Origin: Thermodesulfobacteriota bacterium
GTDB taxonomy: Bacteria; Desulfobacterota_D; UBA1144; Nemesobacterales; JAJCZQ01
Assembly (NCBI GenBank): GCA_965215275.1
Contig: OZ244044.1
Location: 1,216,001-1,280,000 of the forward strand
Length of the DNA stretch: 64,000 nt
Reading direction: 5' to 3'
Part shown: positions 48,269 through 60,437 of the stretch, one piece after another
How positions within the stretch are numbered: position 1 is the first letter of the stretch
Layout of the letters: each line of letters starts with the position of its first letter
Translations under genes and position numbers: made by a program
Notes under the pieces: model-generated
The model's database searches: none
Told to the model about the DNA's origin: nothing
Seen by the model: the letters and a program-made list of their open reading frames with translations, nothing else

Positions 48269-49246
48269 ATGCCTAGTCATTTAAATGTTCCTAGCAAATA
48301 CTGGGAACTCACAAAGGAGGTTCCACCACCTCCAATAGAGAGAGACATCAAGTCATGGATTATAGCTAATCCTTCAGATCCTCTATGGGATATTGATGTT
48401 CTGCCTCTGACTTACACTGACAGCCGTTGGTCTGCCTTTGTAGTAAGGTGTGACGAAGCTACCAGGCAGCGTCTTTGCCCAAACCCACCTCTTACCGTAT
48501 GGGATGGAGAGGATGCTGATTTGGTTGAGTACTGGTATGTTGACCACAAAAACACTATGCTTGGTCCATACTTGGAATTCGGTGTAACCGTTTCTGCTAC
48601 ATATAAAGATCCAAATGGTAATGTTTACAAGGCTGGTTACTATCCCTATATGTATCTTACGGGGGATGCTCCGGTTGATGCTGGTCGTGTTCTTGGTTTT
48701 CCAAAGAAAATGTCCTATATAAGATGTTCCGTTCATGGCGGAGAGAAAGGTACTGATTTCTTTGGTTTTGCCATGTCACGTAATGGATATTTGATGCACA
48801 GTGCAACTGGTAAGTTTGATGATAAAGAAGTTAAGCCACCTTTCTTCTATGGCAAGACGGACTGGGGTAAGTTCAACATGAAAGTTATCACCAGGCCTGA
48901 TGTTTCAAGTTCTGAGTGGCAGTTAACCTATCTTCCATCAGCATTGCCACCGCCGTTTGACTCAATGATCCAAGGGCACAGGTTTAAAATTAAACCAGAG
49001 CACACAAGAACAGCTTCCGGCGATGCAATTAACTGGTTTGCACAAGCTACTCCTTTTGACAACATGGGAGCGGAAGTCAAGATTCAGGAAGTTACAGGTC
49101 TTATTTCTTTTGTATTTGACCTCGTTATTCCGCCTGCTGAAGTTCTTTGGACTGAAACATATGAACGTCCTGCAAGCTACAGAGGGTATGCTACTCCATA
49201 TAAATATGGATTGCGTCAGCAGTTCCCGATCAGTCAGGGTTCATAA
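48269..49246 (+). CDS. Acetoacetate decarboxylase-like superfamily protein, paralog 1
   Basis: GPYLEFGV, PYMYL, AGRVLGFPKK (Schiff-base Lys motif); SD AAGGAGG. Confidence 0.8.
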   Translation: MPSHLNVPSKYWELTKEVPPPPIERDIKSWIIANPSDPLWDIDVLPLTYTDSRWSAFVVRCDEATRQRLCPNPPLTVWDGEDADLVEYWYVDHKNTMLGPYLEFGVTVSATYKDPNGNVYKAGYYPYMYLTGDAPVDAGRVLGFPKKMSYIRCSVHGGEKGTDFFGFAMSRNGYLMHSATGKFDDKEVKPPFFYGKTDWGKFNMKVITRPDVSSSEWQLTYLPSALPPPFDSMIQGHRFKIKPEHTRTASGDAINWFAQATPFDNMGAEVKIQEVTGLISFVFDLVIPPAEVLWTETYERPASYRGYATPYKYGLRQQFPISQGS

Positions 49247-49302
49247 GAACTTTAGTTTTATGTTTTGTTGTTGAATAAAAAATTTATTTAGGAGGTATTA
49301 CA

Positions 49303-50274
49303 ATGGGTTTACAAGCAAATGAATACAGCTACCCTTGGTTAGATGAAGGTGAAGTTCCTCCATTACCTTTGGACAGGGACAGGATCCACATCATCTCACA
49401 AGGTGTTGCTGACCCAGTTTTTGATTATGATATTATTCCTCTGACATATACGGAAAGCCGCTGGATGGCTTACTGTATCCGTGCAGATGAAAACGATATG
49501 AAAGCAATCGTTCCGGAACCGATTCAGGTCACTGACGATGTAATTGAGTTCTGGTACGTTATCCACAAAAACACAATGTTAGGACCATACATGGAGTTTG
49601 GTGTAACTTTTTCAGCTACGGTTGATTCTGGTGATGGCCAGATATACAAAGCTGGTTACTATCCTTACATGTATCTTTCAAATGACTCCCCGATTTTTGC
49701 TGGGAAGGAGCCATTTGGATTTCCTAAAAAAGCTGCTTACATTGCTGGTTTTGAGCATGGGACGAACAATAACTACTTCAACCATCTTATGGAACGTCGT
49801 GGTTATATTCTCCATACTGCGAACGGTCGTTATTCAGATAAACCACTTTCCGTCAGACCAACTTTTTATGGTAAGACAGACTGGGGTCGTATGAACTACA
49901 GGATCACGACAAGACCTGACGTGTCAAATAGTATCCATGAGGTTACTTATCTTCCGTCAGAACTTCCACCGGGATTCGGCACAGGCCACCGCTTCCAGTT
50001 GGATCCAAGCAGCATTCGCACGGCTGTTGGTAGCGATATTCGTTCTTGGTATATGTCTGGTACACCTTTTGATTTCATGGGTGGACAGATTCCTGCCAAA
50101 GAGATCGTTGGTCTGATCAGCTTTACGTTTAACCTGATCATTCCACCAGCTCAGACGATATGGACCAAGACTGTGGAAAGAGGTACTGATGATATGGGTC
50201 ATGTCGTTTACTCAACACCATTTGAGTACACCATGAGACATCGCTTCTTACTGCCTCAGTACAGCCAGTGTTAG
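49303..50274 (+). CDS. Acetoacetate decarboxylase-like superfamily protein, paralog 2
   Basis: GPYMEFGV, AGKEPFGFPKK; colinear with paralog 1; SD AGGAGGT. Confidence 0.8.
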   Translation: MGLQANEYSYPWLDEGEVPPLPLDRDRIHIISQGVADPVFDYDIIPLTYTESRWMAYCIRADENDMKAIVPEPIQVTDDVIEFWYVIHKNTMLGPYMEFGVTFSATVDSGDGQIYKAGYYPYMYLSNDSPIFAGKEPFGFPKKAAYIAGFEHGTNNNYFNHLMERRGYILHTANGRYSDKPLSVRPTFYGKTDWGRMNYRITTRPDVSNSIHEVTYLPSELPPGFGTGHRFQLDPSSIRTAVGSDIRSWYMSGTPFDFMGGQIPAKEIVGLISFTFNLIIPPAQTIWTKTVERGTDDMGHVVYSTPFEYTMRHRFLLPQYSQC

Positions 50275-50628: not shown

Positions 50629-52026
50629 TTAGTCAACCGTTCTTATCTGGATCGAGTCGCTGTTGGTTCGAGTAATTATATCAGAGACTACAACCACCCT
50701 TTCTCCCACTTTGAAACCTTCTTTCTTTAAAGCATCAACTGCTTTTTTAATTGTAAGTTCCGGCTCTTTGTTAAATTTTATTAAATGTGCTGCAACCGAT
50801 CTGTTTAAAGCAAGTTGCCTTTGCACCGTTTTATCTTCCGTAAACGCATATATATAAGTTTTGACAGGTCTGCGGTTCGTTACGTACTGGGCCATGACAC
50901 CACCTTTAGTTATTACGACCACTGCTCTTGAACTTATAGCTTCTGCCAGACCAACTGCCGTAGCGGCGATGTGTTGTTTTTCATTGGTTTTAATAAGGTT
51001 TTTTCTGAAATTGAGTCCTGGCTGTTTTTCGGAAGCTCTTGCAATTTTATCGGTATGTCTTATTGAACTTACGGGGTATTTTCCGATAGAAGTTTCAGCT
51101 GACAGCATTACTGCGTCCACTTCTTCATATACTGCATTGGCTACGTCTGTAACCTCGGCACGTGTGGGAATAGGGTTTTGGATCATCGATTCAAGCATAT
51201 GAGTGGCGACTATGACCCTTTTGCCTTTTTCTTGACAAAGTCTTACGATATTCCTCTGTACATTTGGCAGTTCCTCTATATTTATTTCAATGCCTAAGTC
51301 TCCCCGTGCTACCATAATGGCATCGGAAACATCAATGATCTCTTCTATATTGCGAACTCCCTCTTGATCTTCTATTTTGGAAATGACCTTTATCTTATTG
51401 GCATTTTTACCAAGAAACTTTTTAAGTTCCTTAATGTCTTTTGCTTTTCTTACGAAAGAGAGGGCTATATAGTCAACGCCGTTTTTAATTCCGAAAAGTA
51501 TATCTTTTTTATCTTTGTTCGTGATTGCGGGCAGAGCTATCTTTATACCTGGAAGGTTAACGTGTCTCTTGCTTTTTAATGTACCTCCATCAAGTATTTT
51601 GCATTTAAGCAGACCTTGATTCTTTTTCAATACTCTCAAATTTATAAGACCATTATCGACCGTGATCGTATCTCCCTCGTTTACGGCGTTGATAAGGTCC
51701 TTGTAATCAATGTGGAGTACTGAACTTTCCTCCACGTTCCCTCCTCTCACGGACACCGTTATAACGTCTCCTTTTTTTAGATTGATATCCTTTTGCAAGG
51801 TACCGGTCCTTACCTCGGGGCCCTGAGTGTCCAGGATTATCGCAACCGGATGTTTAAAGGTTTCGTTCAGTTTGGTTACCGATTTGATGATATTCAGATG
51901 AGAGGCATGGTCTCCGTGCGTCATATTAAGTCGAACTGCGTTCATTCCTGCTTTATGCATCGCACTTAATTTCTTTTCAGAGCTGGTTTCCGGACCTATC
52001 GTGCAGATTATCTTAGTGTTTCTCAT
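50629..52026 (-). CDS. pyk: Pyruvate kinase
   Basis: TKIICTIGP, DTQGPEVRT, MVARGDLG, PTRAEVTDV. Start may be up to 52083. Confidence 0.97.
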   Translation of the reverse strand: MRNTKIICTIGPETSSEKKLSAMHKAGMNAVRLNMTHGDHASHLNIIKSVTKLNETFKHPVAIILDTQGPEVRTGTLQKDINLKKGDVITVSVRGGNVEESSVLHIDYKDLINAVNEGDTITVDNGLINLRVLKKNQGLLKCKILDGGTLKSKRHVNLPGIKIALPAITNKDKKDILFGIKNGVDYIALSFVRKAKDIKELKKFLGKNANKIKVISKIEDQEGVRNIEEIIDVSDAIMVARGDLGIEINIEELPNVQRNIVRLCQEKGKRVIVATHMLESMIQNPIPTRAEVTDVANAVYEEVDAVMLSAETSIGKYPVSSIRHTDKIARASEKQPGLNFRKNLIKTNEKQHIAATAVGLAEAISSRAVVVITKGGVMAQYVTNRRPVKTYIYAFTEDKTVQRQLALNRSVAAHLIKFNKEPELTIKKAVDALKKEGFKVGERVVVVSDIITRTNSDSIQIRTVD

Positions 52027-52064
52027 GGTTAAACCTTGCTCAGAAAGCGTGTTTGAACGTTTTT

Positions 52065-53072
52065 TCATTTTATCTGATTCCATAGATCAACTACCACTCT
52101 TCCTACTTGACCGCCTTCTAATATCAAATTGATCTCCCTACTTAGGTTTTCAAGGGAAACCTCTTTGCAGATCTGATCAAGACAGCTGAGGCTCCACTCG
52201 CTGGATAATTTTTTCCATATTTGTACCCTTTTGTCCATAGGGCAGCTCGCGGAATCAATTCCGATCAGGCTTATTCCTCTTAATATAAAAGGGTAAACGT
52301 TCGTGTTAAGTTCATGGGAAGCAACGTTCCCGCATGTTGTTACAGTTCCTCTTTGTTTTGTGGATCTTAAGGCGGTTGCAAGTATGTTCCCACCCACTGT
52401 GTCAACTGCTCCGTCCCAGAGACCTTTAAGCAGCAGTTTGCCTGTCTGATCATCTGTGCTTTCCCTGCTGATGATTTCAGAAGCCCCTATGTTTTTGAGG
52501 AATTCTTTCTGTTTGGATTTTCCAGTGGAGGCAGTTACTTCATAATCAGCTCTGTTTAAAATAGCTACGGCCAGACTGCCAACACCTCCCGTTGCCCCGG
52601 TTACGAGGATCTTTCCCCGTTTGGGTTTTATTCCACTTTCCTGGATTTTAAGCACGGACTGAGCTGCAGTAAAACCCGCCGTTCCATACATCATTGATTT
52701 TTTTAAAGTCAGTCCGGCGGGCATCTTTACGACCCAGCTGCCGGGAACCCTGATATACTGTCCGAATCCGCCGGATGTATCCATTCCCATATCATAACCA
52801 TGCACTATTACTTCATCTCCGGCTTTAAAGCTGTCGACTTCCGAGTATTCGACGATCCCTGCGGCGTCAACTCCCGGAGTGTGAGGATAGTTCCTTGTAA
52901 CTCCTCTGTTGCCAATTGCTGAAAGAGCATCCTTATAGTTTAAAGATGAATACTTTACTTTTGTCAGCACTTCTCCATCGGGAAGGTCATCTAAGGTCCT
53001 TTCTGATATCTCTCTTGTGAATTTTTTCTTATTTTCACTGACGACCATTGCTTTAAAGCTCTTTGATCTCAT
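52065..53072 (-). CDS. YhdH/AcuI family oxidoreductase (acryloyl-CoA reductase-like)
   Basis: YSSLNYKDAL, GTAGFTAA, TGATGGVGS, PFILRG..L.GIDS. Confidence 0.92.
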   Translation of the reverse strand: MRSKSFKAMVVSENKKKFTREISERTLDDLPDGEVLTKVKYSSLNYKDALSAIGNRGVTRNYPHTPGVDAAGIVEYSEVDSFKAGDEVIVHGYDMGMDTSGGFGQYIRVPGSWVVKMPAGLTLKKSMMYGTAGFTAAQSVLKIQESGIKPKRGKILVTGATGGVGSLAVAILNRADYEVTASTGKSKQKEFLKNIGASEIISRESTDDQTGKLLLKGLWDGAVDTVGGNILATALRSTKQRGTVTTCGNVASHELNTNVYPFILRGISLIGIDSASCPMDKRVQIWKKLSSEWSLSCLDQICKEVSLENLSREINLILEGGQVGRVVVDLWNQIK

Positions 53073-53187
53073 ATCTTGTACCTCTGTTCATCTGGTAATT
53101 TTCTGAACAACGTTGTTTAAAAGGGATATTACCGTTCCAGACAAAGTTATTCTTGTAAACCGTAAAACTCAAGTATAATACCCAGAT

Positions 53188-54345
53188 ATGAGCGTGCAAA
53201 CACAAATTAACGGAAAGAACAAGGTCCTTGGTGGTAGAGATAAGGTCAAAGTGGCAATTGCCCAGGTCTCTCCCGTGTTCATGGATAAGCAGAAAACCAT
53301 TGAGAAAGCATGCAGTTTTATTAAACAAGCCGGCGATAATGGTGCAGAATTAGTTGTTTTTCCGGAGGCTTATATACCGGGCTACCCGGCGTTTTATACC
53401 GTAGGTTATGAAACTGATCCGCATGACTGGACCGATTTCATGATTGCCTTGCAGAATAACTCGGTTTCCATTCCGAGCGAAGATACTGAGATCCTTGCCC
53501 AGGCATCAAAAGACGCAGGTACTTACGTCGTTATAGGATGCAACGAACTCAGTGACAGGGTGGGAAGTCAGACGGTTTATAACACTTTATTATATATAGA
53601 CAGGGACGGCAGTATCTTGGGAAAACACAGAAAATTGATGCCCACTTATACCGAGCGCGTTTATTGGGGCATGGGAGACGGAAGTGACCTTGAGGTCTAT
53701 CAGACGGATATTGGAAGGATCGGCGGTCTTATTTGCTGGGAAAACCACATGGTACTTGCCAGGTCGCACATAATTAATCAAGGGGAGGAATTCCATATTG
53801 CAGTTTGGCCTGGCAACTGGAAACGAGGAAGTGACAAATTACTGGATGCAGATACGGCAGAAAAGGAAAATAACTGTCTGGCGCAGTCGCTCATAAAAGT
53901 TCATGCCTTTGAGGCGGGTTCGTTCGTTTTAAGTGCCGCAGGATACTTAACCGGGGAAGATTTTCCTGAACGATGGAACCATGTGAGGGACAGCGACCAT
54001 GTAAATTTTGACTGGTCTTTGGGTGGCAGTGCCATAGTAAATCCCGGGGGCAGATATCTTTTTGAGCCACACTTTGAGAAAGATGCCGTTCTTTACGCCG
54101 AGTGTTATGCAAATCAGATAAAAGCTGTAAAAGCAATATTTGATTCTCTTGGACACTACTCAAGATGGGACGTAGCAAGGCTGGTTTTTAACAGCGACGG
54201 ATTGTCCCCTGAGCTGAGCAGCGATCATAAACGAAGTATCGATAAGCGAATCAATTCCCAGGAAGTGAAGAGGATATCGGATAGATACGAAATTGAACCT
54301 GCGAAGTTGTATGAGATACTTGAAGAGCTAAAAAGGCTGATCTAA
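53188..54345 (+). CDS. Nitrilase (carbon-nitrogen hydrolase)
   Basis: E-K-C triad: FPEAYIPGYP, HRKLMPT, GLICWEN; also D..GHYSR. Confidence 0.92.
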   Translation: MSVQTQINGKNKVLGGRDKVKVAIAQVSPVFMDKQKTIEKACSFIKQAGDNGAELVVFPEAYIPGYPAFYTVGYETDPHDWTDFMIALQNNSVSIPSEDTEILAQASKDAGTYVVIGCNELSDRVGSQTVYNTLLYIDRDGSILGKHRKLMPTYTERVYWGMGDGSDLEVYQTDIGRIGGLICWENHMVLARSHIINQGEEFHIAVWPGNWKRGSDKLLDADTAEKENNCLAQSLIKVHAFEAGSFVLSAAGYLTGEDFPERWNHVRDSDHVNFDWSLGGSAIVNPGGRYLFEPHFEKDAVLYAECYANQIKAVKAIFDSLGHYSRWDVARLVFNSDGLSPELSSDHKRSIDKRINSQEVKRISDRYEIEPAKLYEILEELKRLI

Positions 54346-54419
54346 CCCAAAAGATACAGTTCCTGTAGAGAAGTTCCTGTTCTCTAAGTGATTTTCGAAA
54401 GACGTTCCTTTAGTGTGAT

Positions 54420-54836
54420 TCAGCTTTTCATTTCCCTCTCGGGAATGAACTTGTAGGATATTACGTCCCTGCCATCTGGGGTTTTCTTCACCACTCCCGT
54501 GGTAACGAGCATCTTCTCTCCAAGTTGAAGATTGTCCATATCCTTTGTTTCTACCTGTGCCATTACTCTTACTTTTTCTGGAAAGTCCACAAGAGCAAGT
54601 GCATAAGGCACGGGAAATTCCGGCATACTTCTTCTGACGACCGTAAATGAATGTAACACGCCGGCAGGACTTAGCAGTTTTTCTTCAATGTCATCGGAGA
54701 AGCTAACCGGGTCCGCCAAGTATTTTGGAAAGGTGTAATTATCAGATTCCTTTGAATAACCTCCAATAAGTCTTACCCTGCCTTCTTCATCTGTAGTAAA
54801 CAGATCATCTCTAAAAATTTCCTGTTTTTCACTCAT
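54420..54836 (-). CDS. DUF35-like OB-fold protein with a degenerate Zn ribbon
   Basis: G.LHSFTVV, PYALALVD, RVMAQV OB-fold motifs; no cysteines. Confidence 0.8.
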   Translation of the reverse strand: MSEKQEIFRDDLFTTDEEGRVRLIGGYSKESDNYTFPKYLADPVSFSDDIEEKLLSPAGVLHSFTVVRRSMPEFPVPYALALVDFPEKVRVMAQVETKDMDNLQLGEKMLVTTGVVKKTPDGRDVISYKFIPEREMKS

Positions 54837-54955
54837 AAAAAACTCCTCTTACTTTGTATAGAACCAATCATACCGCTTAAAGGCAAATATTATATTCATA
54901 GTCTGTCGGTTTGTAAAATTAGGGAATTATAGTAAATAGTTGACAAAAAGAAAAT

Positions 54956-54984
54956 TTGATAAACGGGTCAGAAAATGGTAGTAT
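54956..54984 (+). promoter_or_regulatory. Putative promoter for a leaderless tnpB transcript
   Basis: TTGATA, 17 bp, TAGTAT with TGn extension; predicted start at the ATG (54991); no SD. Confidence 0.5.
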
Positions 54985-54990
54985 TATAGC

Positions 54991-56214
54991 ATGGTTAGAA
55001 CGATCACAAGAACTGTAAAGGCAGATAGTGGTTTTCATAAAAGGCTGGATGAATTCTTGCAACAGCTTACCGACCTGTATAACGGAGCTTTATATCACAG
55101 ATTAAGATCTTATGACTGGTATGAAAAAACTATCTCTAAATACGAACAGTTTAACGAACTAACTGAGGTCCGAGAACAAGACAAGGAATTTGAAAAGTTT
55201 AATGTTACAGCTCAAAGAAGCGTTCTGGAAAGACTGGATAATGCATATAGTCCTTATTTGAACTATTTAAAGAATAAAAAAGCAGGTAAGAAGGTCAGAA
55301 AGGTGGGCAGGCCAAAATACAAAGGTCCAAACAGACCTGTCAGGAGTTTTGAAACAAACAATTATAAAAACATTGAAAAGATCGGCAGGAGAACGTATTT
55401 AACGATAAAGGGAGTTGGCAGATTATCTTTCAAAGGTAGTGTGCCTGACGGAGTTGTTTTAAAACAACCTAAAACAACAATAAGGATAGTTAAAACAGCT
55501 ATAAGAATAAAAGTCCAGTTTCTATGTGAGTTTACCAGCGAAAAGAAAAGACCTATGGACAGGTCCATAGGGATCGACCTTGGAATTATAAACAGAATGG
55601 CTTTTTCAGATGGAACTAAAATACCAGGAGTTCAGTTGAACAGAAAGGAACTGAAAAGAAAGCAGAGAATTGTTTCAAGAGCGGTAAAAGGTTCTGACAG
55701 CAGAAAGAAGAAAGTTTTATCGTTAGCAAAGGAATGGGAACGAACTACCGATCGTGAAAATAACGCTATACACAGAATGACTACCGAAATAGTAAAAAAG
55801 AACAATCATATAAAGTTGGAGGATTTAAAGATCCAAAATATGGTAAAAAATCCTTATTTATCAAGAAGTGTAACGGAACAGCAATGGGGGAAGATTAAAA
55901 CCCAACTTGACTACAAAGCCGAGATAGCTGGAGGCAAGTTAGTTTTAGTTAATTCCCATTATACAACAATGACCTGTTCTGAATGCGGAAAGGTAAATCC
56001 AAAACTGCCTTTGTCTGAAAGAGTATTCAGCTGTATATATTGCGGTTATTCAGAAGACAGGGATATAAATGCAGGTAAGAATATCAATACTCTTAATGAA
56101 GGAGACTTCATATCGGGTGGGAATAAGGTAGAAATACTCCCGATGAGTGCTAAGAGTATCAGATCAAAAGAGAATGGGGATAGAGGAACTCTGCACTCAG
56201 AACAGTACGAGTAG
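54991..56214 (+). CDS. tnpB: RNA-guided endonuclease TnpB (IS200/IS605 OrfB)
   Basis: LYNGAL, GRPKYK, RuvC-I GIDLG, RuvC-II LEDL, CxxC..CxxC Zn finger, RuvC-III DRDINAGKNI. Confidence 0.95.
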   Translation: MVRTITRTVKADSGFHKRLDEFLQQLTDLYNGALYHRLRSYDWYEKTISKYEQFNELTEVREQDKEFEKFNVTAQRSVLERLDNAYSPYLNYLKNKKAGKKVRKVGRPKYKGPNRPVRSFETNNYKNIEKIGRRTYLTIKGVGRLSFKGSVPDGVVLKQPKTTIRIVKTAIRIKVQFLCEFTSEKKRPMDRSIGIDLGIINRMAFSDGTKIPGVQLNRKELKRKQRIVSRAVKGSDSRKKKVLSLAKEWERTTDRENNAIHRMTTEIVKKNNHIKLEDLKIQNMVKNPYLSRSVTEQQWGKIKTQLDYKAEIAGGKLVLVNSHYTTMTCSECGKVNPKLPLSERVFSCIYCGYSEDRDINAGKNINTLNEGDFISGGNKVEILPMSAKSIRSKENGDRGTLHSEQYE

Positions 56215-56245
56215 TTGTTTGTCAACTATTTACTATAATTCCCTA
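56100..56245 (+). ncRNA. Putative omega RNA overlapping the tnpB 3' end
   Basis: Stems ATCGGG/CCCGAT (56112-56144) and TGAGTGC..AGAGT/ACTCT-GCACTCA (56144-56199); GTCAA right-end-like motif at 56221-56225. Boundaries are approximate. Confidence 0.55.
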
Positions 56246-56259
56246 GAATTTAACAGATA

Positions 56260-57060
56260 ATGAATAACAAGGTACCTTGTGCGTTGACGATTGCCGGGTC
56301 GGACTCATGCGGTGGTTCAGGTATTCAGGCCGACCTTAAAACGTTTGCTGCTCTGAAAGTTCATGGACAGTCGGTTATAACCTCTCTCACTGCCCAGAAC
56401 ACTCTTGGTATCCGTTCTGTGTATGATCTGCCAACTGATTTTATTGAGGATCAGCTTGATGCGGTTATGGATGATATAGGGTGTGATGCTGTAAAGATAG
56501 GTATGCTCTCAAATGTCGGTATAGTGAGGTCGGTTTCAAGGAAACTTGAGCAGTATAAAATAGACAAGACCGTTCTGGACCCTGTTATGATATCCACAAG
56601 CGGTAGTAAACTTCTGGAAGATAAGGCCATTTCAGAACTTATACGTATACTTCTGCCTAAATGTTGTTTGATCACTCCAAACGTTCCCGAGGCAGAGACG
56701 ATAACCGGAATGACAATTAACGATTTAACGAGCATGAAACAAGCGTCAGAGGCCATCAGAGATCTTGGATGTGGTTCCGTACTGCTGAAAGGGGGACACC
56801 TTGCCGGATCGGAGTTCTCCTCGGACGTTTTTTTTGATGGGAATAAATTCAGGGAATACAGAACAAAGAGAATTAAAACTAAAAACGTTCGCGGAACCGG
56901 CTGTACGGTCTCATCTGCAATCTGTGCTTACCTTGCTAAAGGTCATAAGTTAAGAGATTCAATAGATCATGCTAAAAACTATATTTTTCAGTCAATTAAT
57001 AATAGTTTTAGCATAGGCAAAGGAAGCTCTTTGTTGGATCATAACTGGGATACTGATTGA
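56260..57060 (+). CDS. thiD: Hydroxymethylpyrimidine/phosphomethylpyrimidine kinase
   Basis: TIAGSDSCGGSGIQADLKT, DPVM, TPNVPEA, KGGH, GTGC. Confidence 0.96.
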   Translation: MNNKVPCALTIAGSDSCGGSGIQADLKTFAALKVHGQSVITSLTAQNTLGIRSVYDLPTDFIEDQLDAVMDDIGCDAVKIGMLSNVGIVRSVSRKLEQYKIDKTVLDPVMISTSGSKLLEDKAISELIRILLPKCCLITPNVPEAETITGMTINDLTSMKQASEAIRDLGCGSVLLKGGHLAGSEFSSDVFFDGNKFREYRTKRIKTKNVRGTGCTVSSAICAYLAKGHKLRDSIDHAKNYIFQSINNSFSIGKGSSLLDHNWDTD

Positions 57061-57109
57061 AGTTGACAGCGATGATTACGGTAAATATTTTGAACGAATA
57101 AGGATATAT

Positions 57110-57811
57110 TTATTGGTCCGCATCAGCGTCCACGAGCAATTTACGTCCATTGATGGGTTGCACGGGGCGATTGTTATTATGGATAATAGACCTGAATACC
57201 TTGATCTGCGTTTCAGATATCTCAATAGGTGTCGTCAGAACGATCCATTTAACCCCTTCCGAACAAGGTGGAGTGGTTAACGACCCATCATATCTGTATG
57301 AAAACCTTGATATTGGCAACATATCGTCCACGTTGATCAACTCGTCCGGGACGTTCCGTGTTTCGCCGGCGTTAGTTGGTAAATTTAGCCAGACGGGATT
57401 AAAAGCCTCATTGTTCTGCCCTTTTCTGATCATAGCCCCTATAACGGCAATTGTCCCTTCTTTACTTTTGTGAACGAGGTGCATTTCCAAGTCAAACAGA
57501 CTTTCCGCCAGGGTGTGTTCGCTGGGTGAGTGAAAATGGAACTGTTGTAGCATGTATTTCGTATCTTCTATTTCAATCCAGCTCCCTTCATCATATTGAA
57601 CTTCGATCGTGAGACCGTTGTTAAGGATTTTCAAACTGGAAGGCCGGTAGTTGAAACCGATCTCTGGAAGTTTTACTCTGCTGGCATTTTCAATGTTGAT
57701 CGGGGACTGACTTTTACCCTCCGAACAAAGGAAATAGTCCGGGCTTAATTGTCCCCATACCTCTGGTCCATTATCCGTTCCGTATCCCCACTTAACTTTT
57801 CTTTTTTCCAT
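57110..57811 (-). CDS. Alpha-class carbonic anhydrase
   Basis: QSPINI, QFHFHSPSEH, EMHLVH, GSLTTPPCSEGV.W, NNRPVQP. Confidence 0.95.
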   Translation of the reverse strand: MEKRKVKWGYGTDNGPEVWGQLSPDYFLCSEGKSQSPINIENASRVKLPEIGFNYRPSSLKILNNGLTIEVQYDEGSWIEIEDTKYMLQQFHFHSPSEHTLAESLFDLEMHLVHKSKEGTIAVIGAMIRKGQNNEAFNPVWLNLPTNAGETRNVPDELINVDDMLPISRFSYRYDGSLTTPPCSEGVKWIVLTTPIEISETQIKVFRSIIHNNNRPVQPINGRKLLVDADADQ

Positions 57812-57945
57812 TTTTATTTGTTGTTTAGCGTAACGTATATTTTTTTTGGGGAATTATATACTTAACTGTGCGAAAACAAAATATAACCTTTGTATATTTA
57901 TGCACTTGACATTCATTAATAATATAAAGTAAAATGAAAAAGGTC

Positions 57946-60437
57946 ATGAACATGTTATTTAGAGTAATACCCCCCCCCATAAGTTATTAATTTCCTTTTT
58001 CTTTCTTCTGTGCTTTGCGTCCATTGGTGCATATGGTCAGACCAGTATTAAGAACTGTGACTCCAGTGCAGCGATCGAAGCTACATTGGAAGTGGGTCGA
58101 CCGGCTATCCGAAGAAATTTAAGTGATGCCGGTTTACATTATTTTCAGATAAATCCAAATGGAAATTTTATTGCAGATATAGAGGTAGAAGATATCACCT
58201 TCTCCAATGATCAGGAATACAGTTTACAGGTATGTGACAGCAATGATGATCTGATAGCAAGTACCACTGAAGTGCATCCGAGTGATGAAGAGTCAAGAAC
58301 GAATGCCACTATACAAACTCGTTTCAGCCCGGGAACGTACTATATAGTTGTGGGAAGCAGTGGACCTACACCCTACGGGGTTCGAGTTCTAGTAGCTGAT
58401 TCTCAAAACTTATTCGATGACTATGACTGTCCAGGTATTACTACCAATTTTCCAAATGATCCCTTATACGGGTGTCAGTGGTATCTGAAACGTCAAGCGG
58501 GTGAGCTTATATTAGGTGAAAAGACAATACCACTCCCTGAAGAAGATATAGACATAAAAATAGAAGAGGTCTGGGATGATAGTGTATTTGGAGCTGGGAT
58601 TAACGTGGCGGTGGTAGATCATGGTATGGACACAGATCATGAGGACCTTGCTGACAACATAGATACCACCCTTTCTCATGATTACTCCGGAAGCGGTGAT
58701 CTGTACAGTCCTTTCAGTGGTCGTGGTACACGTGTAGCAGGCATTATAGCAGCAGTGGGTGATAACAGCCTTGGAGTAAGAGGTGTAGCACCTGAGGCAA
58801 ACATCTACAGTTATAATTTAGCTGATAACTTCAGTGATGCTAACGCAAAGGACGCCATGGTCCGTAATAAGGATATAACGGCTGTATCGGTCAACAACTG
58901 GGGACCGAAGGACCTGCCGGTTCTTACAGAGGCTTCATCGGAGTGGGAAGAAGGAGTGAGAACTGGTATAAGAGAAGGTTTTGGTGGTAAAGGTGTATTT
59001 TACGTATGGGCGGCAGGGGACGGACATGAAGGATCAGACCAGGCTAATTTTAATGAGTATTCCAACTACTACGCAGTAACTACCGTATGTTCAATGGAAG
59101 CTGAAGGTAAGCCTGCTTTTCGTAATAGTTCCTTTTCAGAAGAGGGATACAATCTATGGGTATGTGCACCGGGTTCTTATATTGTAACGACGGACAATAA
59201 CGACAGTTATACTTTTGAGTTCCCTGGAACGTCAAATTCAGCTGCTGTTGTTTCAGGAGTAGCAGCACTGATGCGGGAGGTAAACAGTGATATTAGCTGG
59301 CGGGACCTGAAACTGATACTGGCAGGTTCAACCGACCAAGGAGCTCTTGACCGTGGGTGGAATAGAAGAGCACTTAAATACGGTTCTGATTCAGAGTATT
59401 ATTTTTACAATCCAAAGTTCGGTTTTGGTACAGTAGACACCGCAGCGGCAGTAGAACTTGCAGGGAACTGGACCAACGTTCCACCGCCAATGAGGCCCGT
59501 GACGGTTTCCTCGGGTAATATCGATACAGTTATACCAGACTTCACAACGGGAGGAAACGCGGAAGACGTTTCCGCTGTTTTCACACTGAACGTACCTGAT
59601 ATAGATATACCAGGTACTGAGGTCTTTACGGAATTTATAGAGATAGGTATCAATTTCACTCACCCTTTCTTTCCTTTTTTAAGTATAGAAATAACTTCCC
59701 CTGACGGTAGAGTGTCAAAACTCACTGAGGCATATCCAGCAGAAGCTTTATCACTTTTATTATCTGGCAGATCTCTTACTGTAGACGACTTTGACTATAC
59801 AGGCAGAGAGCATCGTTTTGGTTTAGCCAACCACCTGGGAACAGACCCTGCCGGAGAGTGGACCTTGAAGATAACCAACGCTTCAGTCGCAGGTGCGGGG
59901 ACTTTACACTCATGGAACATTAAGGTCTATGGTCATATGTCTGGGGATACACCTACGTTTAACAACTGGACGATACCAGATAAGAACTACGTGCCAGGAA
60001 CTGCAATAAAGGAAACACTGCCTGAGGCAACAGCAGGGAATGGAGAATTAACCTACAGCCTGTCCCCTATTTTACCTGCTACTGGTTTACCTGCTGGACT
60101 TACTTTCAGTTCAGCTGACAGAGTGCTTAGCGGAACACCAACTGCTGTATCTTCCGGCAGTTATACATATACGGTAACGGATGAAGATGGAGATACGGAC
60201 GAACTCATCTTTACCATCAGGGTAACGACTACGCCACCAGGACCGACAGACCCACCAACAACAGGACCACCGACACGAAGACCGACATCATCAGGTACAG
60301 GCGGAGGTGGAGGAGGATGTGCGGTCTCAGATCAGAACGAAGCTGCTTCTGATCTGCTCACAGCATTGGCATCTCTGATGCTTATACCTGTATCCGTTGT
60401 GATAAGAAGGAAGATAAGGTCTCGGATAAAGGTTTAG
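57946..60437 (+). pseudogene. Subtilase-like surface protein (S8, P-domain, Ig-like repeat, sorting tail), frameshifted at a C9 tract
   Basis: ATGs at 57934/57946/57952 are out of frame with the signal peptide HKLLISFFFLLCFASIGAYG and with ORF 58086..60437. Motifs VAVVDHG, GVAPEA, GTS, GFG.VD, GEWTLKI. Confidence 0.8.
57970..57978 (+). repeat. Poly-C (C9) tract, possible phase-variation switch
   Basis: Lies between the start codons and the signal-peptide core; C10 or C7 restores the frame. Confidence 0.7.

Follow-up and report, generated by a model that had tools for sequence, protein, structure and literature searches.

A tnpB-only element with IS1595-type ends and a predicted guide that begins in its target-site duplication, from a Thermodesulfobacteriota genome

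We describe an element that lies between a DUF35 gene and thiD in a 64,000-nt stretch of a Thermodesulfobacteriota genome (the window; positions without a prefix are counted from its first letter). We consider it probable that this is a non-autonomous, IS1595-type, tnpB-only element, likely moved in trans, and that its TnpB acts in homing with a guide that starts at the target-site duplication (TSD). The window's genome, G000, is a single contig of 1.99 Mb.

An inverted-pair search of the window confirmed that 54920-54947 and 56218-56245, the arms reported in a first-pass annotation of the sequence, are exact reverse complements over 28 nt. The next best inverted pairs in 52000-59000 were one of 26 nt at 73% and two 12-mers at 100%. 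Similarity among copies of the element ends at GGGAATTAT on the left and ATAATTCCC on the right, and the element therefore spans 54922-56243 (~1.3 kb, GGG...CCC ends). Its arms proper are 26 nt long, and the outer TA belongs to an 8-bp TSD with the copies TAAAATTA (left) and TAGAATTT (right). Loose ends in public contigs begin at 56244. The only gene between the arms is tnpB and a transposase ORF is absent, as the first reading had it, hence we classify the element as an IS1595 derivative and not as an autonomous IS. Features are collected in Table 1.

Table 1. Features of the element and its host flanks (window positions).
Feature	Position	Strand	Basis
Host flank, DUF35/ChsH2 OB-fold gene	54420..54836	-	PF01796
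TG, predicted TAM (G at -1, mostly T/G at -2)	54912..54913	+	5' of left TSD
Left TSD copy, 8 bp, 6/8 alike to right copy	54914..54921	+	TSD comparison with sister copies
Left TIR, IS1595 type, GGGAATTAT...GTTGACA	54922..54947	+	conservation among 8 copies begins there
Predicted tnpB promoter, TTGATA-17-TAGTAT, TG before -10	54956..54984	+	consensus scan only
tnpB, 407 aa, RuvC D196/E277/D358, C4 zinc finger intact	54991..56214	+	profile matches, alignment
Predicted omega-RNA stem, ATCGGG 56112-17 / CCCGAT 56139-44	56112..56144	+	fold, alignment, family D change
Terminal hairpin of predicted omega-RNA, linker + inner right TIR	56205..56236	+	covariation
Right TIR; last 6 nt ATTCCC (+ strand) predicted 3' pseudoknot strand and scaffold end	56218..56243	-	
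Predicted guide, right TSD copy 56244-56251 + ~8 nt flank, up to thiD start	56244..56259	+	
Host flank, thiD (phosphomethylpyrimidine kinase)	56260..57060	+	PF08543

The 407-aa ORF encodes a TnpB, with matches to PF01385, PF07282 and NF040570 above cut-off and a match to ISDra2 TnpB (8h1j) at E 3e-28. The three RuvC acidic residues seen at first pass are invariant in all 10 aligned relatives, and the D-E-D catalytic pattern is kept in 32 of 35 relatives. E277 sits 52 residues ahead of C329. A separate Pfam search with a 25-aa piece gave no match. Ratios of dN/dS were 0.15-0.31 among six copies in G000, with a median of 0.145 over 67 pairs of relatives. TnpB is under purifying selection with D-E-D intact.

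The ends of the element are those of IS1595 transposons. Like IS1595 elements, it has GG termini, TIRs of ~26 bp and 8-bp TSDs in AT-rich DNA, and the same ends occur on local elements that encode a Zn-ribbon and DDE_Tnp_IS1595; the available text of PMC8101967 gives GG termini and 8-bp TSDs as marks of IS1595. It differs from them in having no transposase gene, in carrying tnpB and its RNA as sole cargo, and in a right TIR that would double as RNA scaffold. Transposase elements of IS1595 type in G000 (L031-L033; PF12762, PF12760 and NF033547 over cut-off) and the tnpB elements have GG(G/A)(A/G)TTAT ends and 8-bp TSDs in common. The ISNwi1 group of IS1595 has the end motif GGnnatTAT. Thirty end pairs were found around genes for IS1595 transposases, and the terminal motif of the left TIR also bounds IS1595 transposase elements. 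The inner arm subtype of the tnpB elements is present on some transposase elements as well (L275, L277, L304, L305, L309), the same arms also bound elements without tnpB, and IS1595-type ends with 8-bp TSDs enclose ABC/TPR or methylase/HicA genes as cargo.

With ends and an 8-bp TSD of IS1595 type and no transposase gene of its own, the element likely borrows an IS1595 transposase; ends and TSDs make movement in trans by such an enzyme likely. The sole transposase gene found in G000 with GTTGACA-type arms is split into two ORFs, and full-length transposase matches with arms of this type are present in relatives. A search of G000 for Y1 transposase gave one weak match, far from any copy. The first-pass annotation had offered, as one of two readings, the capture of tnpB by an IS630/mariner-like transposon with a TA duplication. 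A non-autonomous TIR element likely moved in trans survives from that proposal; the family assignment and the TA duplication do not, since IS1595 elements of G000 have these ends and 8-bp TSDs and the TA is part of the TSD.

The element is multicopy in G000. Eight near-complete copies (protein identity 84-100%) have unrelated flanks, and the flank past the terminal CCC is different at every copy. The dinucleotides outside the ends vary (TA, AA, AT, AC and others) and are part of 8-bp TSDs; among the seven sister copies, the TSDs are alike at 8/8 positions in four and at 7/8 in two, and are out of register in one. IS630/Tc1-mariner was ruled out by the lack of a TA duplication among these varied outer dinucleotides.

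Three further tnpB families lie within IS1595 ends in G000, namely B (484 aa), C (~405 aa) and D (~465 aa). Family B is found at G000:C1:735945-737502, 1094941-1096501, 1616480-1618027 and 1618106-1619604 (L041-L043), and in three of its copies GGGAATTATA recurs ~60 nt in from the left end, immediately ahead of the start codon. Family C is distant (27% identity) and has perfect TSDs at G000:C1:202418-203706, 714634-715929 and 1724035-1725337, and a transposase element at 1516018-1519071 has the same left arm. Family D, at G000:C1:772277, 82381, 1042009 and 1695640 (L045, L046), has GGGAC/TTATATAC ends and has mostly lost its TSDs. Two other cassettes have perfect 8-bp TSDs: G000:C1:1812584-1815955 (L033) combines a transposase with an N6/N4 methylase-HNH fusion and a HicA-domain gene, and G000:C1:17470-21955 (L044) is transposase-free and carries ABC ATPase and TPR genes.

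End motifs are also abundant outside these elements. GGGAATTATATA occurs 66 times in G000 vs about one expected. Many of these copies are unpaired ends, which points to heavy IS1595 turnover or to adjacent deletions. A G-run followed by GGGGATTATCTTAAAC is repeated at G000:C1:34728, 137739, 180924, 373109, 717764, 1007937, 1028956, 1102281, 1728193, 1744632 and 1786518; at the two places examined, this sequence begins a gene of a multicopy ~740-aa exported-looking family and is not an element end.

Relatives of this TnpB were found in a genus of the same order, g10, where 19 of 36 genomes encode ~38%-identical TnpBs. Paired ends were present at 45 of the 70 g10 loci examined; removing three duplicates and eight loci with TSDs alike at fewer than 7/8 positions left 34 sites, 26 from a close family and eight from a distant one. 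The 26 close-family sites are spread over 15 related genomes and cannot count as fully independent. The closest g10 pair is 96.5% identical, and there are no pairs at or above 97%. In the close relatives G001-G004 (completeness 80-99%) we found no match to this TnpB, and the end motif is present in 4-7 copies in each. Only distant TnpBs, at 26-55% best-segment identity, came back from pattern scans of metagenome and genome collections. GG...CC ends with an exact 8-bp TSD were found at none of 132 distant loci (93 of at least 2.5 kb), a limited control because many loci are cut short.

In a quick tree, families A, B and D grouped with the close g10 family (SH-aLRT 99), and family C grouped with the distant g10 family in a second clade (support 100); the protein-database relatives P0004-P0013 fall within the clade of this TnpB. 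This topology tentatively suggests that TnpB lineages have captured IS1595 ends at least twice, a count kept tentative because the branches are long. At L306:137-5202, a degenerate left arm, with a near-copy of the TSD that has G before it, lies 2.5 kb away from a transposase element, on its outside; two elements may have inserted there in tandem at a single target.

We predict an omega-RNA at the 3' end of the element. The loop of the stem in Table 1 carries GGGAAT (56119-24), the 5' strand of a predicted pseudoknot; it is complementary to the terminal ATTCCC, and single-sequence folding pairs the two (z -2.27). All 54 aligned right ends have GGGAA(T) 98-125 nt ahead of the end (mode -107), in a loop search that required this motif. 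Since the search required the motif and the pseudoknot pairs are near-invariant, the alignment and the position of the motif say little by themselves. Covariation adds thin support: a double change from A-U to C-G occurs in family D, where three of four copies have GGGAC with GTCCC. One family-D copy breaks the fifth pseudoknot pair, six g10 right ends have an uncompensated GTCCC, and the fifth pair is kept in 46 of 54. Rfam returned no family, with one chance match at E 2.3. In ISDra2, -106G..-102U pairs with -6..-2 and the guide starts at +1 (available text of PMC10097598). In that register the scaffold of our element would end at CCC and the guide would start with the TSD; it is this pseudoknot register, with the one-sided G described below, that places the predicted guide.

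The right TIR appears to have been recruited into the terminal hairpin of this predicted RNA. The hairpin opens with a G-U pair past a conserved AGAACA and closes seven bases short of the terminus; the inner TIR forms its 3' arm, and a linker that varies along with the TIR forms the 5' arm. Across 30 of the 54 aligned right ends, 94.7% of 150 cells pair, with 21 double-sided changes and none of 500 shuffles as high, in rows that are related and for a helix drawn from the same sequences. Slid registers reach at most 71% pairing. The window's own outer helix is bulged. At the hairpin tip, GTCAA is present in 26 of 54 right ends, GTCTA in 13, GTGTA in seven and others in eight.

This hairpin bears on the other reading of the first-pass annotation, in which the guide starts past GTCAA and targets the element's own arms, either for autoregulation or to cut at the termini and release the element. 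The positions given for GTCAA (56221-25), the 20 nt that follow and TTGAT (54956-60) are right; the terminus lies 18 nt past GTCAA, which fits the 15-21 nt between TAM and cut in ISDra2 (available text of PMC10097598), and left and right arms covary across subfamilies. We nevertheless find such a guide extremely improbable. The would-be guide is paired inside the covarying hairpin, GTCAA itself is found in fewer than half of the right ends, and a 12-nt seed is perfect to the left arm in six of 26 relatives and imperfect in the other 20. An intact nuclease would target both arms, identical ends and TSDs exist without tnpB, and the repeat is imperfect at this locus in public run X5.

The base before the left TSD gives a one-sided, TAM-like signal. 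G is at -1 of the left TSD at all 26 close g10 sites vs 7/26 on the right side; the control set, g10 IS1595 transposase elements from which one duplicate and two nested pairs were removed, has G before the left TSD in 7/18 and on the right side in 2/18. Fisher's test of tnpB sites against the left control gave p 4e-6, with kin that are not independent. The motif was first spotted in the window's own genome, where G is at -1 in 6/6 sister copies with TSDs of at least 7/8 vs 0/9 transposase controls (p 2e-4), and was then tested in relatives. At seven of the 26 sites the left boundary was moved by 1 nt, chosen on the TSD. Local G content near sites is 23%. Positions -2/-1 read TG at 13 of the 26 sites, GG at nine, CG at two and AG at two, for T or G at -2 in 22, and no further conserved base was found left of -2. 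The window has TG. From this pattern we infer a TAM of (T/G)G directly 5' of the TSD. In families B and C the base at -1 is A in 5/5 (B, 2/2 intact sites; C, 3/3 as TA), and the eight distant g10 elements have G in four and A in four.

The G could instead be a target preference of one IS1595 transposase, with TnpB matching it secondarily or having another TAM, an account we judge quite improbable. The g10 controls do lean to G on the left, every tnpB family has its own arm subtype, and TA precedes the left TSD of one transposase element that has family-C arms. Against this, G is found on either side in 3/10 non-tnpB elements whose arms are of the GTTGACA/CTTGACA or CTAGACA type (hand count), and the control in the same genome gave none.

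A Fanzor-like register would place the 3' TSD in the scaffold, the guide after the TSD and the TAM inside the 5' TSD, as is described for Fanzor1 and Fanzor2* in TIR elements (available texts of PMC10711439 and PMC13565253). Fanzors in eukaryotic TIR transposons resemble our element in that an RNA-guided nuclease sits in a non-autonomous element with the TIR in the scaffold; they differ in that the TSD is assigned to the scaffold and to the TAM, whereas the TSD is predicted to lie in the guide seed here. TSD positions are AT-biased, which favours this register, but control elements have the same AT bias, the invariant G, nine bases off such a target, is left unexplained, and the pseudoknot register ends at CCC. 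We rate this register as very unlikely.

In the homing model that we prefer, the omega-RNA scaffold would end at the terminal CCC through the pseudoknot, the guide would consist of the TSD and ~8 nt of right flank, and the TAM would be the (T/G)G just 5' of the TSD. An empty allele, whether a sister chromosome, a precise excision product or incoming DNA, would then be cut and repaired from the filled allele. For IS605 elements, TnpB is described as cutting the empty site, with repair from the filled allele (PMC10690162). The filled site would still present the TAM, but with a match of just 8 nt it would escape cutting. Guide positions 9-12 have at least two mismatches to the junction in 25 of 26 related filled sites, and in ISDra2 double mismatches in guide positions 1-12 abolish cleavage (available text of PMC10097598). 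Insertions without G would be unprotected and lost, giving the observed bias. Against the homing model, an exact match to G and 12 nt for the sister copy at 155905 exists elsewhere in the chromosome, with CG before it. Additionally, a TAM of 1-2 nt is short for TnpB, and a 100% bias by retention alone is hard to reach without frequent precise excision; according to the available text of PMC13565253, cut-and-paste excision is not known to be scarless.

Because the complete G bias exceeds what retention easily gives, TnpB-assisted site choice also has to be weighed. TnpB-RNA, by binding the TAM, would recruit the borrowed transposase to AT-rich sites next to a G and determine the orientation. 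The bias has no exceptions (26/26, 6/6) and follows the orientation of tnpB, non-tnpB elements with similar arms have no such bias, and the -1 base differs between TnpB families; in addition, the arms match less well within tnpB elements than within transposase elements (median 21.5/26 vs 25, p 5e-7). We regard this explanation as unlikely: we found no precedent in the available portions of the literature, g10 has no pairs at or above 97% identity to show fresh insertions, and homing with loss of unprotected copies predicts the same bias. If true, the TAM would abut an 8-bp target that becomes the seed of a new guide, and the system would be a two-component, in-trans, TAM-directed transposon in bacteria.

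The host locus without the element can be seen in G001, a member of the same genus in which the DUF35 and thiD genes adjoin. No arm was found in this empty site at up to six mismatches, which argues against the earlier suggestion that a host palindrome had been there before insertion. The G001 site has two short direct repeats with TG before each. Fourteen bases of it are missing left of the element here, which may explain the imperfect TSD, as judged from a different species. An IS605-type insertion after TTGAT had also been considered and was rejected; the seven sister copies have not kept TTGAT, which forms the -35 box of the predicted tnpB promoter.

The promoter consensus scan found six sites vs 4.1 expected. 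The ATG of tnpB is 7 nt past its predicted promoter, so that the transcript is possibly leaderless, and the predicted -10 region is mostly kept in sister copies. A predicted DUF35 promoter (54889-54917, minus strand) has a -35 box that overlaps the TAM and left TSD. In the G001 empty site (L002 near 1470-1500), a candidate thiD promoter reads TTGTAA-17-TAGAAT; the insertion would split it, so thiD may need read-through from the element.

Public sequencing runs support the repeat at this locus. Their contigs join the same arms to the same flanks, with no differences in the left arm in X2 and X8 or in the right arm in X2 and X5, where X2 may be the source sample. The inverted repeat is therefore not an assembly slip, a concern raised at first pass. 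No joint across the element was found in four public runs; absence of the empty allele does not follow from this. The arms of sister copies mismatch at 1-3 of 26 positions, and the repeat is perfect here. At the same locus in X5 the right arm is identical to the window's and the left arm has G at 54934 and 54946, matching the 198-kb and 869-kb copies; the X5 left end and the 198-kb copy also have an inserted G in common. Either the window's left arm was converted from the right arm or the X5 left end recombined with a sister copy. The perfection of the repeat is thus recent and not required.

Several known systems resemble the element in part. The protein has the fold and D-E-D of ISDra2 and other IS200/IS605/IS1341 TnpBs, and it resembles ISDra2 in a predicted pseudoknot ~105 nt ahead of the end, a guide from the right flank and a TAM left of the target (ISDra2 as in the available text of PMC10097598). 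Unlike IS200/IS605 elements, it lacks TnpA hairpin ends and a nearby Y1 transposase, it has TIRs and TSDs, and its apparent TAM is 1-2 nt and not a general transposase target. IS1341-type IS200/IS605 elements have no TIRs and no TSD (available text of PMC13565253), and a solo IS200/IS605 tnpB was ruled out by the TIRs and TSDs. A fixed IS605-type target of 4-5 nt that equals the TAM was rejected too, as the bases at the left end are a variable TSD and TTGAT is not conserved.

Two other classes were rejected on the protein and its flanks. TldR-type nuclease-dead repressors have an inactivated RuvC and a fixed, promoter-directed guide; they were ruled out by the D-E-D of most relatives and by the flank past CCC, which varies per copy. 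Fanzors and pro-Fanzors were ruled out by E277, which is in the canonical TnpB position, their RuvC-II glutamate being six residues before the zinc finger (available text of PMC13565253).

TnpB in DDE elements is already known; IS1595 as the partner is not named in the literature portions examined. The available text of Altae-Tran et al. 2023 (PMC10691335) describes tnpB in elements with DDE transposases, in branches DDE-1 to DDE-6, with solo TnpBs moved in trans. Our element is like these in having tnpB between TIRs, a solo tnpB with the ends of transposase-bearing elements, and a tnpB whose 3' end lies no more than 250 bp from where the element stops. That text names IS1595 nowhere in its main part and once in a supplementary profile list, and it gives no guide register or TAM for DDE-linked elements. 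A 2026 review lists ISL2, IS630 and IS1031 as DDE partners, calls TnpB in prokaryotic DDE transposons rare, finds its benefit there unclear because cut-and-paste excision is not scarless, and calls for mechanistic work (available text of PMC13565253). A search of titles and abstract openings, with subscription journals mostly outside its reach, found no paper describing a TnpB-IS1595 pairing.

With its dozens of natural insertion sites, the tnpB-IS1595 family is a case that can be tested. Its predicted register, with a guide that would start in the TSD, is unlike that of Fanzors, and its predicted TAM, (T/G)G, is very short; a TAM of 1-2 nt, if real, would be useful for genome editing. The covarying linker shows how a TIR can be recoded into an RNA scaffold. 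The complete one-sided bias raises the question of whether TnpB only protects insertions or places them too.

Other genes in the window include 58086-60437, which encodes a 783-aa protein that we take, by resemblance, to be subtilase-like and to have a sorting motif of GGGGGGCA type at its C terminus; it has a paralogue near G000:701394-704180. The products of two tandem paralogous genes of ~325 aa at 48269-50274 resemble acetoacetate decarboxylase-family proteins.
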